DNA of 64,000 nt from Eledone cirrhosa (Eukaryota): assembly GCA_964016885.1 (NCBI GenBank), contig OZ024740.1, positions 42,408,001 to 42,472,000 of the forward strand, in the 5' to 3' direction. The position numbers were made by a program, and so were the translations under genes. The notes under the pieces are model-generated. The model did no database searches and had not been told where the DNA came from. It saw only the letters and a program-made list of their open reading frames with translations. Position 1 is the first letter of the stretch. Each line of letters opens with the position of its first letter. Positions 16,225 through 61,210 of the stretch are shown here, piece after piece.

Positions 16225-17038
16225 TGAAAATAGGGAGAAAAAGACGATTACTAGGAAGAAAAATATATTTTTTTCCTTTTATTTTTTTCTCTTTTTTCTG
16301 GGTTAGAGAATGTTTAAAACAAAATATTTTACTTTGTGTGAATTGTTAAGGTATTAGTTAATTTATTTGTTAATTAACAATGGCATTTATTTATTTATTT
16401 ATTTATTCATATATTTAATAATTGTCTATTACCGGTTTCAGCATTTTATGCATTATCAAATGGGGGAAGTTGTATTGGTATAACATGCTGGAGAGAAAAT
16501 AAGGTGGCGTTGAACATGTTAAGGAAATGGGAAAGAAAGAATATTATTTACAAACAAGGTTTTTGAAGTAAAAAGAAAAAAAGAAAAAAAGGGGGTGTTG
16601 TGGAACATAAGTTAATGGAAAAGAAAGAATAATACTATTTACAGGCATAGTTCTTGAGGATAAGCTGCTTATCCTCAAGAACTATGCCTGTAAATAATAT
16701 TATTCTTTCTTTCCCATTTCCTTAACATGCTCAACGCCACCTTATTTTCTCTCCAGCATTTTATACCAATACAAATTCCCCCATTTGATAATGCATAAAA
16801 TGCTTAAACCGGTAATTGACAATTATTAAATATATAAATAAATAAATAAATAAATAAATAAATAAATAAATAAATGCCATTGTTAATTAACAAATAAATT
16901 AACTAATACCTTAACACTTCACACAAAATAAAATATTTTGTTTTAAACATTCTCTAACCCAGAAAAAAGAGAAAAAAAAATAAAAGGAATAAAAAAGTTG
17001 TTCTTCCTAATATTCGTCTTTTTCTCTTTATTTTCACA
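16225..17038. repeat. Fold-back palindrome of a PLE pLTR (centre 16666) with degenerate HHR motif
   Basis: GAGGATAAGC-T-GCTTATCCTC centre; arms ~370-440 bp; TTGATAA-tgcataaaatgct-GAAA-ccgg-TA on the minus strand at ~16430-16460. Confidence 0.85.
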
Positions 17039-17390
17039 CACACACATATATATATATATATATTCCAACTCGTGTGCTCATTCACCACATTTTATAATTA
17101 TATACATATATATATATATATATATATATATATATATATATATATATATATATATATATATATATATATATATATATATATATAGTATTAATTATACTAT
17201 TTATGGTTATGTAAATACAAAAACCTTTTGCAGTTATATATATTTTTATACAAACCCTAAATAGTGGTAGGCAGTAATATATTACTACCTTATGACCAGT
17301 AAGTTAAGTAGCTCAATGTAAAAACATCAGATGCTTTACAGAGCAGTTATATGAATTATAAGAATCAAAGAACTGTTCAAAACATTTTTG

Positions 17391-17437
17391 TGCTTACAAC
17401 TGTTTCCTCCAAACCGAGGTTTAGATTCTTCGGAGCA
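17391..17437 (-). ncRNA. Type I hammerhead-like motif with CCGAAGA core (second copy 23022-23068, +)
   Basis: tgct-CCGAAGA-atctaaacctcggtttggag-GAAA-cagttg-TA-agca. Confidence 0.7.
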
Positions 17438-19129
17438 ATTTATTATTGAATGAACACTTATATGACCTCCTTTTCACCCAAGAAAGATACAGATACATAT
17501 GCAAATATTGTGGGTCAATATTCATTACAGCATTTAGAGTGGCAGTACACACTTAGAGATTACATTCATATTAAAAGATACAATCAAAAATACAGGTTAA
17601 AATACAACATCAAATTAAGCGGTTATATTGTGCAAAGGTTATATGTGTGGCAAGCACGTGCGTCTTGTTTATATAGTGTGGCAGAGAGTTGCGTGTAGTA
17701 GAAGCACTTAAGCAGGTAATCGAGAGTGTTAGGTTGGTTGATCTGGTGACGAATTCTTTATATGATTGTTATAGTCTGTGTGTGGAGAAATAATATAAGT
17801 ATTAAAAATAGTGTAAGCATTAAACATATTGGAAATGCGCAGCGAAGCGATGATATGGACTTCATGCACTTCGACATTTTCATAGTCTGGGGAGCGTATT
17901 CTTCAGATTATATGCCCCTCACATAATCCACGACTATTCGATATTGGGGGTTTGACAATCCAGTTAGAGAATCGTAGTCTGATGTTCTTTAGTTCAATAC
18001 AGGAGGATGTTACGTTTCAAGAATCGACATCGAAATACTACCCGGAAGTGTGTGTGTGGCTAAGGGGAGTTAATGCATGAGGGGAGGTAACTCCGTGGTT
18101 TCTATTACTAACTATTATAATGTGTCTCAAAATAGACCCTAACTTATATGGTTATGCGCAATTTCTAAAGAATTTCTAAAATCTAAAGTGTTTTAAGTAT
18201 AGGGTAGTCTACTCAGTTGTGCTGAAGGTGTTCTTATTATTATGGTGATTAACCCCCATCGTAGAGTGCCACAAATGAATATTATACACGTCGAGCGAGG
18301 ATTCTAAATTAATGATCTCTGTGGTTGCAGTCAACTCAAAGGACTAGGCACGTTGATTGCAGAATCACTTCAATACACAATGATCTCTGGTAAGTTCTGG
18401 GTCATCGCTTGCTACATTGGATGTCGAAAGATAATCATCACCAGGGCCGACCAGAGGTCAATCCACCGTCCTCATGACTCCAATCTGACCATCAAATCAT
18501 CCATATATATACAACCCATACACCACCTGCAATACATTTATTCACTGCATTCAGCGTACCGGTCATACACTGCTCATCAGCGTTACTAGATTAATTCGTT
18601 TTTCCTTTGTCCAACGATGGCACTTGCTCCGCACAGCACCAACAAGACAATCAATTTAATGCTTAAATTAACTATAAAGTGGTGTAGTGCAGTTCAAGCG
18701 AGTGGATGTTGTCACACCTAAAGTGGAGGTACAGATGGGTATTCCCCCTGTGAAGGGTTCTAGAGGGATGTCGCTGTTTGTGTTATATTAGATCAGTGAG
18801 TGTTGGATATGTGGTATAAGGTGTGCCCCTGGTGTTTGATACTAGAGGTGGTGTTTGGAGGAAACAGTTGTAAGCACAAACATGTTTTGAACAGTTCTTT
18901 GATTCTTATAATTCATATAACTGCTCTGTAAAGCATCTGATGTTTTTACATTGAGCTACTTAACTTACTGGTAATAAGGTAGTAATATATTACTGCCTAC
19001 CACTATTTAGGGTTTGTATAAAAATATATATAACTGCAAAAGGTTTTTGTATTTACATAACCATAAATAGTATAATTAATACTATTAACTGCTCCATATT
19101 GTTGAGCTGACATACAATAAATTACCAAT

Positions 19130-58530: not shown

Positions 58531-60079
58531 ACAAGAATAGAAGAAGAAGAAGAAGAAGAAGAAGAAGAAGAAGAAGAAGAAGAAGAAGAAGAAGAAGAAG
58601 AAGAAGAAGAAACATTTACACATAGTTTTATTTCAAATATGCACCCACCATATTTCTCCAGTGTCTCTTATACAGATGTGGCTGACAAAAATACTAATAA
58701 GTCAGTGAGGGGATTTTACATGGCCACATACTTGTTTAGAGTACCTGCCAAATATACACTAAACAAATTCTACCCTCTTATAAAATGGCGGATTAGATAA
58801 TGTAGAAGAGGGGTACATTATTTCTGAAAACAATGGCTTAATCACCATTGTTCATAGGCATTCTCCATCATGACCAGCTCAGGGCTAAACATTAAGGTTT
58901 CATGAATGTTCCACAATTCCACTTCTCTTTTATACACCAAAAGCTATGTCTATGAAAGTAAACCCTTTTTACTTTGTGAGGTTTAGAAAAGTCTCATTTC
59001 ATTACTAAAATATTCATAGTATTTGACGAAAAGGAGAAAAACGTGCTTTTGACTTCAAGAGCATTATTTTGAAGTATTATGGCGGTACTTATCTGTATCA
59101 ATAAATGTACCTATAAATGTGATTAGTGATTTCTTTTTAAGGTAGTTAATGGATGTCTTTGAAGAATAGTCACTACATCTAATCTACTTTACATGTATGG
59201 CTTGCATCATTAATCTGTTAACGTTTAAGTTTTAATTCCACTTTAAAGAAATTGCCATTTCATTTTCAGACATTTTTATTTCTACAGGCATTAAAAAGAT
59301 GTTAATCTGCAAAATTTTGTTTGATAATTATTTTTATTAGGAGATTAGTTTATGAATTCCTTTGAAGGAAAACATGTATGTGCTCACTAAAGCTATAAAA
59401 ATGACTGCTAATATAGCGTATAAAAAAAAAATTTTTATTGAATATATTTTAACGTATAGGAGAAAGATTGCCTTTCGATAATAAATAACTTCAATATTTC
59501 GTTTTAATTTAACACTTTCCTTTAAAACGTTAATTGAAAATGTTCATGAGAAAGCAATATGAAAATTTAATGAAGCAAATTAACGAATATTTAAGATAAG
59601 GTGAATAGATCCCTCAGCAAAATCTGAGATCACAAAGATTTCATCAATTATGAAAAGTTAGGAAAGGAGGGTGAACCGGAAAGAACAGTGGAACAATAAG
59701 GTTAATTACCTTTTAGCATCTAGACCTCCTACGTTCTAAGTTGAAATCCTACATTGATTAACTATGTTTTTATCGTATTCAACTTGGGAAAATAAATTAC
59801 AATATATTAAAGTTGCCGATTTAATCGTATCTACTCCCAGCTAGTGAAAATCGTATCTCCTCCCAGCTAGTGAAAATAAAACAAAGTAAAAATTAAATAT
59901 TTAGAACCATCAGAACCATGCCCAAAGCACACTCCCATGACTAACAACAAACTAACCCATACTTTCTATTGGTACTGAGAAGACAGACGTCATCAAACTG
60001 CAGCCGCCTTATTATCTGGACTATGTGTATGTGCAGCGGCCAACACAGTCAGTAGTTCAACTACACAGAATCAAATCAA

Positions 60080-60400
60080 CCACCAATCATATATATACAG
60101 GATTTGCACCTACAAAGTCCTATCCCGAAGCACAAGACCGGGCATAGTGTTTTTGTGGAAGAGCGGCAATCAATCATGCAAGCTAGTCTCCGCTCTCGAC
60201 ACAAACATTGTTGTCGAAGGGAAAGGCAAAGGCTGATACAGTTCGGCACCTGTGACGTCATAACTCATTCCTACAGCTGAGAGAATTGGAACAACGTGAA
60301 ATAAAGTGTCTTGCTCAAGGGCACAACGCGCTCTCTCAGGGAATCAAGCTCACAATCTCACGATTGTGAATCCATTCTATATTCACTAAGCCACGCACCT
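60080..60400 (-). mobile_element. tRNA-derived SINE sharing the S2 central domain
   Basis: GTGGCTTAGTG head; CCCTTGAGCAAGACACTTTATTTCACGTTG. Confidence 0.75.
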
Positions 60401-60438
60401 TCTCTCCTTTTCACTCCCTCACACACATACTGCCTCAT

Positions 60439-61210
60439 AAATATAAGTATGTATACGTACATACATATATGTATACAGACGTACAGTAGTATGTATATAT
60501 ATATACATACATGCACACACATATATATATGTACGTATGGATTCACCAAACATGTATTATAATGCTCGGTGTGTTTATAAACAAACATCCCGAATTAAGC
60601 TGTACAGTGTCTAGCAACCATCGTTGTTCATTTGTTCAACACTGACAAAGGAAGGCTGTACTAGTTTCAAGCTTATTAGCTATCGTCAGCAACGTATACC
60701 TTCCTGCCAGATAATTGAACGTCTGAAAGTATATACTTTCCTTATGCATATTAACGGCTGAGCAGCCTAATTTGCATATCGAGTGAGTTAATCGGCCGGG
60801 GCACCGAAAACGATAAACTCACTGGATATGCAAATTAGGCTGCTCAGCCGTTAATATGCATAAGGAAAGTATATACTTTCAGACGTTCAACAATCTGGCA
60901 GGAAGGTATACGTTGCTGACGATAGCTAATAAGCTTGAAACTAGTACAGCGTTCCTTTGTCAGTGTTGAACAAATGAGCAACGATAGTTGCTAGACACTG
61001 TACAGCTTAATTCGGGATGTTTGTTTACAAACACACCGAGCATTATAATACATGTTTGGTGAATCCATACGTACATATATATATGTGTGCATGTATGTAT
61101 ATATATATACATACTACTGTACGTCTGTATACATATATGTATGTATGTATACATACTTATATTTAAGTAAGAGCCGTACTAAGAGTGAGAAATGAAATTT
61201 CGTTTCATTT
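60439..61210. repeat. Fold-back pLTR (arms ~60439-60794 / 60811-61164) with canonical HHR and tail
   Basis: Arms are reverse complements with few mismatches; 16-nt loop. Confidence 0.9.
60911..60951 (+). ncRNA. Canonical minimal type I HHR (mirror copy ~60653-60694, -)
   Basis: cgttg-CTGACGA-t agct aata agct t-GAAA-ctag-TA-cagcg. Confidence 0.82.

Follow-up and report, generated by a model that had tools for sequence, protein, structure and literature searches.

Short palindromes of Eledone cirrhosa as minimal insertions of Penelope-like elements, probably built from two paired cDNAs

Introduction

Why does one stretch of the Eledone cirrhosa genome contain six short palindromes, some of which fold on a single unpaired base and carry a hammerhead ribozyme (HHR)? 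The window, by which we mean the whole stretch of 64,000 nucleotides that was analysed (assembly GCA_964016885.1, contig OZ024740.1, positions 42,408,001 to 42,472,000, forward strand), had been read in a first-pass annotation as holding products of cDNA snap-back self-priming, perhaps dead-end footprints or perhaps a mobile, non-autonomous palindromic ribozyme element. Snap-back self-priming is the model proposed for the Penelope-like elements (PLEs) of Adineta, where the accessible part of PMC3846280 interprets palindromes at inverted junctions in this way. The origin of the inverted pLTRs and one-end tail of PLEs is called unresolved in PMC8557442, and PMC11167929 leaves it to 'additional steps'. 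The palindromes described here are not in themselves a new element. They are the shortest PLE insertions, and each was probably formed from two separately primed cDNAs joined head to head, one from each of two fixed 3' ends.

Results

All six palindromes lie where the first-pass annotation placed them, with arm identities of ~81-98% by BLAST. BLAST detects no similarity between any two of them, and none contains an ORF of at least 150 aa, both as had been claimed. Four do fold on a single unpaired base, at 16666 (T), 24850 (T), 40876 (A) and 43431 (A), the fold at 24850 having a 5-bp inner stem followed by a 1-nt bulge; the other two centres measure 36 nt (33632-33667) and 16 nt (60795-60810). 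The one-sided tail, described as frequent, exists but was understated, since all six palindromes have one, and the full units are for this reason longer than first given (Table 1).

Table 1. Palindromes and larger PLE insertions in the window (S, short 3' end; T, tailed 3' end)
Feature	Position	Strand	Remarks
P1 full unit	16225-17099		
P1 left arm	16225..16665	-	S end; retains 88-nt segment between two ~30-nt direct repeats
P1 left arm HHR	16225..16665	-	degenerate: TTGATAA...GAAA CCGG TA
P1 centre T	16666		1-nt microhomology (C) to parent ACTGC
P1 right arm	16667..17099	+	88-nt deletion; tail 17063-17099 (T end)
P2 full unit	24590-25018		
P2 left arm	24590..24849	-	T end, with 95-nt tail at 24590-24682; HHR core 24789
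P2 right arm with centre 24850	24850..25018	+	S end; HHR core 24912
P2 right-arm HHR, predicted cut	after 24961	+	
P3 full unit	33456-33792		
P3 left arm	33456..33631	-	tail incomplete; CUGA half of HHR missing
P3 right arm including 36-nt centre	33625..33792	+	S end; 7-nt microhomology GAAAATC
P3 right-arm HHR, core 33655	predicted cut after 33736	+	read by eye
P4 full unit	40845-40988		31-bp arms around centre 40876; S end on left arm, 84-nt tail on right arm; contains no HHR
P5 full unit	43242-43751		
P5 left arm	43242..43430	-	S end; long-stem-II HHR, core intact
P5 right arm with centre 43431 and 130-nt tail	43431..43751	+	T end
P6 full unit	60438-61220		
P6 left arm including 16-nt centre	60438..60818	-	S end; HHR core at 60689
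P6 right arm and 56-nt tail	60811..61220	+	T end; HHR core 60916
Large PLE	17182..23111		1.68-kb inverted arm with tail; full sense arm, 778-aa ORF (19121-21457), ends at S
PLE end pair	28430..30760		tail on inverted arm; S end on sense arm
Large PLE	36024..38553		inverted arm ends at S; sense arm ends at T
Coding frame of large PLE 36024..38553	36185-37981		598-aa RT plus GIY-YIG

Each arm is the HHR-bearing end of a high-copy PLE family. In longer copies the arms of P1, P2 and P5 run into PLE ORFs, as seen from sense-direction tblastn to the PLE proteins of the window and from translated motifs; the P1 parent leads into an RT/GIY-YIG ORF and the P5 parent into a CxC/GIY-YIG ORF. For the P3 and P4 parents no PLE ORF was shown within 1.5 kb. 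Pfam gave no match on three parent fragments or on the 778-aa ORF, and on the 598-aa frame it gave GIY-YIG together with a sub-cutoff RVT_1. The P6 family has a 429-bp non-coding unit repeated head to tail, retrozyme-like, and every unit has its own type I HHR; one tandem locus has two units with cores, another about four, and 22 upstream regions gave no tblastn match. Of 54 left ends, 36 adjoin (TA)n, as do 43 of the 54 right ends; the (TA)n masks the signal of candidate TSDs (4 in 54, where shuffling gave a mean of 2.2 and a maximum of 7).

Every family has two fixed 3' ends, a short one (S) and a tailed one (T), and the inner ends of the arms vary. From a sample that leans to young, query-covering copies (40 best candidates per family scored, 30 fetched, 4 duplicate loci dropped first), 176 non-duplicate loci yielded 73 head-to-head pairs of adjacent inverted 5'-truncated copies, 12 of which had an unassignable end and were set aside. 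Of the 61 scorable pairs, 57 combine an S arm with a T arm, where about 50% would be expected if the ends were independent (p=2e-13; the definitions of S and T come from the loci that were scored); the remaining four are T/T or S/S. The larger PLEs of the window were correctly said to have the same inverted-pLTR-plus-tail layout, and all three that are readable obey the S/T rule. The palindromes were rightly described as minimal PLE insertion products with this layout, and the suggestion that they are dead-end footprints was right too.

Could a palindrome arise from one cDNA, or an antisense template, that folds back and copies itself before switching to the target or another template? We consider this unlikely. 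Such copying fits the rare variants shared between arms (0-1 differences in 17 of 30 P5 loci), and P3, P4 and P6 fold at natural 5-8 bp inverted repeats that could seed a hairpin, the P4 centre falling within a 5-1-5 inverted repeat of its parent. The copied arm must, however, be a subset of its template, and in the 42 S/T pairs outside P6 the tail-less arm extends further 5' in 19, the T arm in 12, and the two lie within 10 nt in 11; in 4 of the 42 the T arm never reaches S. Given also the discordant ends of the 57 pairs, a single cDNA folding back is therefore insufficient. Centres of 0-1 nt are moreover too tight for a hairpin loop, and they outnumber those of 3 nt by 34 to 5 among 50 listed near-5' P5 junctions (by hand count 16 of 0 nt, 18 of 1 nt, 4 of 2 nt, 5 of 3 nt and 7 longer) and by 21 to 4 among the 98 of a genome sample (1.2 Mb taken at fixed steps across the genome). 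The P1 and P2 parents offer one base pair only around a 1-nt loop, and centre polarity is random. Snap-back, as first invoked for this locus, is thus unsupported, and its simple form is largely ruled out; a form with an obligatory second template would be hard to tell from paired priming. The same 42 pairs (19 S, 12 T, 11 equal) also dispose of a rule suggested by five of the six window palindromes, that the centre always comes from the tail-less arm.

Two independent insertions at one (TA)n site, or later recombination of neighbouring copies, would be very improbable. The families are indeed very abundant and all target (TA)n, but no target sequence lies between the arms, both arms belong to the same subfamily, and the S/T pairing is far from independent.

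Identical fold junctions do recur at different loci, a check proposed with the first-pass annotation: exact copies were found at 106 loci for P5, 9 for P3, 5 for P2 and 2 for P6, the four families counted, with none in reversed-pattern controls. This is what would be seen if a palindromic ribozyme element were transcribed and re-inserted whole, with its junction. Yet the 106 copies make up less than a tenth of 1116 near-identical, near-5' P5 junctions, which form a wide spectrum. In the 30 of these loci that were fetched, 17 have a left-arm tail, 12 a right-arm tail and one a tail on each arm, so that centre-to-tail polarity (17:12) does not depart from 50:50 (p=0.46); for P2, with 26 junctions, polarity was read on 5 loci. 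The P5 junction occurs in several subfamilies, whose variants are shared by both arms with none specific to the left or right, and the outer ends lie freshly at S and T. Random polarity and the several subfamilies therefore imply that junctions form repeatedly and are not moved as one element; a mobile element of this kind is unsupported and scarcely credible.

An artefact of assembly or library preparation (mirrored reads) has a negligible claim, for although four sequencing runs on P6 gave no centre-bridging piece among those listed, family copies having swamped the signal, the arms differ by an indel and mostly by rare alleles found on both sides (P5: 6 left, 5 right), which bears out the earlier appeal to arm mismatches, and the one-sided tail ends at a family-wide fixed site.

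The 88-nt difference between the P1 arms does not mark two subfamilies. There are no diagnostic sites and two rare alleles are common to both arms, and the gap is therefore a recurrent deletion between direct repeats.

What, then, determines the centres? Junctions show 0-7 nt of microhomology or short templated inserts. One nucleotide is the commonest centre length (15 of 98 in the genome sample), and the four of eight window palindromes with a 1-nt centre are a mild excess over that sample (p=0.02, after selection by the reader). The GC-T-GC centre common to 16666 and 24850 was correctly noticed; as a shared signal it is rejected, being an instance of the wider C-[A/T]-G pattern seen in 8 of the 15 sampled 1-nt centres (7-16% expected). 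The P2 fold lies 1-3 nt inside the putative start site of its parent, TATA(-30)/TCACT. In P2 and P5 the arms share a stopping point, the A of TCACT and of TCATT respectively, and a non-genomic G frequently lies just beyond it, though the extra base is not always G and about half of the examples in P2 are ambiguous; no clear 5' hot spot emerges for P1, P4 or P6. Judging from these sequences, the cDNAs are likely often to run off the probably capped 5' end of an RNA that starts in the pLTR.

Most of the palindromes had been said to carry an HHR core or adjoining pLTR sequence. The core is intact on both arms at 24850 and 60800, on one arm at 43431 and once at 33650, but is degenerate at 16666 and absent at 40876; in longer P4 copies the HHR lies ~50 nt upstream of the latter position. 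The consensus sequences of P2, P4, P5 and P6 have the motif and stems of a minimal type I HHR with palindromic helix III, that of P1 is degenerate, and the P3 HHR was recognised by eye. The calls rest on motif and stem inspection because Rfam (E<=1) listed no HHR among 150 of its 158 matches, giving only sub-gathering microRNA/snoRNA hairpin-like ones. Folding at the HHR cut site was considered and rejected. Neither folds nor S/T sites coincide with the predicted cut, the folds lying ~110 nt (P2), 125 nt (P5) and 245 nt (P1) upstream and 16 nt downstream (P4), and the S site 47-219 nt downstream. A few P4 copies begin 4-11 nt past the predicted cut, too few to weigh. The HHR is, on this reading of the sequence, cargo of the pLTR, and its self-cleavage a prediction.

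Discussion

The preferred explanation is thus a paired form of priming. Each cut strand of an AT-rich target would prime one cDNA. One cDNA would begin at the S start site of the element RNA and the other at its T start site, and head-to-head joining would follow at 0-7 nt of microhomology. If the two cDNAs stop independently, a short T cDNA would give an inversion without a repeat, while a body flanked by inverted pLTRs would follow from unequal lengths and a palindrome from equal ones; equal lengths should be frequent where both cDNAs are copied to the capped 5' terminus of a pLTR-started transcript and run off it. Two identical 3' ends could pair only at a self-complementary word, and a 1-nt centre may reflect pairing across a central mismatch (ATAAT/TAATA, CAG/GAC, TGTTTAAAACA with itself), resolved either way at random.

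Taking these points together, we lean, by a modest degree, towards a wider reading in which paired twin priming is the default mode of EN+ PLE integration. A dimer would allot one RT start site to each strand; inverted pLTRs, one-sided tails, tail-only inversions and perfect palindromes would form one series set by where the cDNAs stop; and the tandem retrozyme would use the same machinery. There might then be on the order of 10^5 such palindromes in the genome. In the sampled 1.2 Mb there are 107, or ~89 per Mb, a count that includes some not checked as PLE-derived; at this density they give the genome ample potential for forming hairpin DNA and double-stranded RNA. A two-cDNA origin would explain a long-noted quirk of PLE insertion.

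How does this compare with known systems? In L1 twin priming, reportedly described by Ostertag and Kazazian in 2001, both target strands prime cDNA and the products are joined by microhomology. It is a minority outcome that uses an opportunistic second priming site, and its segments normally do not overlap. Here, in contrast, the two sites are both fixed, and overlap between the cDNAs produces inverted repeats. An example of L1 twin priming appears in the available part of bioRxiv 10.1101/2024.12.14.628481. Among the papers listed by a literature search, none that uses 'pLTR' also uses 'twin priming'; subscription papers and supplements, which lay outside that scope, may contain such a model.

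The inverted-pLTR-plus-tail layout is already published, and the paired S/T rule is a useful addition to it. EN+ PLE insertions, as described in the accessible parts of PMC3846280 and PMC8557442, likewise have an inverted 5'-truncated copy at the 5' end, a one-end tail, (TA)n targets, palindromes at the inverted junction and TATA/TCACT in the pLTR. Tails there are 30-40 nt, whereas here they are 36-130 nt and the body is absent. Self-priming was proposed there, an idea against which the S/T rule argues; the present data favour two primed cDNAs.

According to the part of PMC11167929 available, PLE protein in vitro (PAc, Poseidon, Anolis) cleaves and extends both target strands, PAc RT starts at two internal sites that delimit the tail, the protein is predicted to be a dimer, and the HHR is dispensable for insertion. 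The S/T rule ties these two start sites to the genomic layout and predicts an outcome in that existing system. PAc showed no start-site difference between the two strands, and that part of the source offers no inverted-copy model, whereas the genomic pairs here, from which the pairing is known at sequence level, have one site per side.

The HHRs resemble the minimal hammerheads of PLEs in the accessible part of PMC4209133 (type I core, short palindromic helix III, location in the pLTR), which also ascribes HHR pairs 100-700 bp apart on opposite strands to truncated PLEs; the predicted HHRs of P3 and P5 differ in their long stem II. Finally, P6 shares with the animal non-LTR retrozymes of bioRxiv 10.64898/2026.07.22.740005, as far as its available part describes them, a tandem, non-coding organisation in which every unit has a type I HHR, and differs in its 429-bp length, short arrays and PLE S/T signature. 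The PLE link of retrozymes is argued there from phylogeny; the S/T ends of P6 provide mechanistic, not phylogenetic, support for their mobilisation by PLEs.

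Palindromes in the window

The six palindromes that the first-pass annotation described (P1 to P6, names that also serve for their repeat families) were all recovered by self-BLAST and a centre scan. They are unrelated to one another, none contains a long ORF, and four fold, as proposed, on one unpaired base. The hammerhead core attributed to most of them stood in part, being intact in both arms or in one for three palindromes and otherwise single, degenerate or external (see table); none appears among the Rfam matches listed (150 of 158). The cores are oriented outward from the centre, implying that every unit lies head to head. 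Differences between arms are largely rare alleles, present on both arms, a pattern expected of old, real insertions; among the matches listed for sequencing runs compared with P6, no read bridges the centre. We conclude that the palindromes are a real feature.

Palindromes and neighbouring features of the window
Feature	Position	Centre	Description
P1	16225-17099	16666; 1 nt	hammerhead degenerate
P2	24590-25018	24850; 1 nt	hammerhead intact in both arms
P3	33456-33792	33650; 36 nt	single hammerhead copy
P4	40845-40988	40876; 1 nt	hammerhead core outside palindrome
P5	43242-43751	43431; 1 nt	hammerhead intact in one arm
P6	60438-61220	60800; 16 nt	hammerhead intact in both arms
Short palindromes	33122-33229, 50651-50740, 31908-31978		new here; one with (TA)14 as its centre, another with a centre of 4 nt, the third 82% identical
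Head-to-head pair	14841-15212		arms 79%, (TA)n on flanks
Duplication	24997-25030		13-bp tandem, at short 3' end of P2
Tandem array	44952-45475		22-bp unit, about 17-24 copies, 75% matches
PLE	18853-23111		full-length-looking; uninterrupted 778-aa frame (19121-21457), unrecognised by Pfam
LINEs	1-11000, minus strand		two tandem copies, 87-94% identical; endonuclease, RT, zf-RVT domains
Reading frame	27466-27960, minus strand		164 aa; resembles C-terminus of a CR1/L2-type LINE (no Pfam hit)
Site of P1 deletion	16494-16636		88 nt

The repeat of the further head-to-head pair carries, by eye, tRNA-like A and B box motifs and may be a SINE using the machinery of Penelope-like elements (PLEs).

Arm families

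Every arm is a high-copy repeat of this 3.0 Gb genome, with 498-2658 first-look candidates per family, from each of which the best 40 were scored and 30 fetched. PLE reading frames lie upstream of the repeat in longer copies of P1, P2 and P5; longer P3 and P4 copies show no ORF within 1.5 kb. Three short fragments of the parents had no Pfam match, and one PLE of the window matched GIY-YIG and, weakly, RVT_1. The parents of P2 and P5 are relatives of the full-length-looking PLE. The P6 family (1461 candidates) is a 429-bp non-coding unit with a hammerhead per unit, repeated head to tail (as at loci L010 and L027), and insertions of this retrozyme-like family bear the PLE end signature described below. 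In the P1 family, an 88-nt deletion between direct repeats of ~30 nt recurs with no linked variants, in some cases on a single arm (window, L111), which suggests slippage in each cDNA.

Two fixed 3' ends, one per arm

When all loci are mapped to their family reference, each family proves to have two sharp outer ends, a short (S) and a tailed (T) 3' end, 36-130 nt apart. Head-to-head pairs make up 73 of 176 non-duplicate loci; with 12 set aside because an end was not assignable, 57 of the 61 scored pair S with T (T/T 3, S/S 1; p=2e-13 against 50%), a rule also obeyed by three large PLEs readable in the window. The inner ends vary freely: with tandem P6 excluded, 19 pairs have the S arm extending further 5' and 12 have the T arm doing so, and in 11 the two lie within 10 nt. 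The T arm is tail only in 4 pairs, leaving an inversion without a repeat. Microhomology of 0-7 nt or short inserts mark the junctions, and many of the inserts are copies of sequence close by.

These ends bear on the snap-back self-priming of cDNA proposed earlier. A self-copied arm never exceeds its template at either end, and the simple form is thus excluded for pairs in which the tail-less arm outreaches the other or the T arm is tail only. Hairpins looped over 3 nt or more would, moreover, yield 3-nt centres more often than 1-nt ones, and the background shows the reverse. Across 120 stretches of 10 kb sampled at fixed steps, 107 palindromes had arms of at least 40 bp; setting aside 9 with simple-repeat centres leaves 98, with centres of 0, 1, 2, 3 and 4 nt in 6, 15, 4, 4 and 4. 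The window's surplus of 1-nt centres over this background is mild. Of the 15 one-base palindromes, eight centre on CAG or CTG, and most of the 15 carry, by eye, a one-sided tail together with a whole hammerhead or the 3' half of one. On this evidence the palindromes are not a snap-back product.

Recurrent junctions

Identical fold junctions do recur, the behaviour sought as a sign of mobility: an exact-pattern search of P2, P3, P5 and P6 found identical centres at 5, 9, 106 and 2 loci, respectively, with no match to reversed control patterns. The details overturn a mobile palindromic ribozyme element. Of 30 fetched P5-junction loci (two pairs not independent), 17 have a left-hand tail, 12 a right-hand tail and 1 a tail on each arm. 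Several subfamilies share the junction, and no arm variants are side-specific, both arms carrying those of the locus's subfamily. The palindromes are not a new mobile element of this kind.

A looser pattern gave 1116 P5 junctions near the same point; by hand count, the 50 listed have centres of 0 nt (16), 1 nt (18), 2 nt (4), 3 nt (5) or longer (7), and 26 P2 junctions are equally varied. Varied junctions, random polarity and several subfamilies together imply that the centre forms anew at each insertion. Another family has one recurrent 1-nt junction, centred on A or T, at five sampled loci (L192:3692, L212:9590, L273:7972, L284:3258, L336:4558), a second hot spot like that of P5.

How the arms may join

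Arms and solo copies of P2 and P5 end on the A within TCACT or TCATT, 30 nt (P2) and about 40 nt (P5) after a TATA-like box. A non-genomic G often lies directly outside this stop (by hand, 8 arms in 50 P5 loci; 6 clear and about 7 ambiguous cases in 26 P2 loci); in P5, other extra bases are about equally frequent. PMC3287187 ascribes an extra G of this kind in L1 and SVA insertions to the 7-methyl-G cap having been copied. Both cDNAs may run off a capped transcript with a putative start in the PLE repeat (pLTR), and a self-complementary word would then be the only place at which their identical 3' ends could pair. Pairing of ATAAT with TAATA in P5 would form four base pairs and a single A.A mismatch and leave both ends extendable, which would explain the 1-nt centre and the random polarity. 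P1 and P2 would be consistent with CAG on GAC, and P4 with a natural 5-1-5 repeat.

Comparison with known systems

Descriptions of inverted pLTRs, one-sided tails, insertion into (TA)n and palindromes at the junction already exist in PMC3846280 and PMC8557442, where self-priming is the cause proposed for such layouts; the pLTR layout is restated in PMC8969392. Hammerhead pairs on opposite strands, 100-700 bp apart, are noted as truncated PLEs in PMC4209133, and a phylogeny links retrozymes to PLE pLTRs (bioRxiv 10.64898/2026.07.22.740005). Twin priming applied to PLEs was not found in a literature search excluding older subscription papers and supplements. The value of the palindromes is that they offer a large natural sample of PLE integration events, and the one-S-one-T rule can be tested directly in an in vitro system that already exists. 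For a purified PLE, PMC11167929 describes both strands being cut and extended, with no need for the hammerhead, from two start sites that bound the tail and with no strand bias in the start site.
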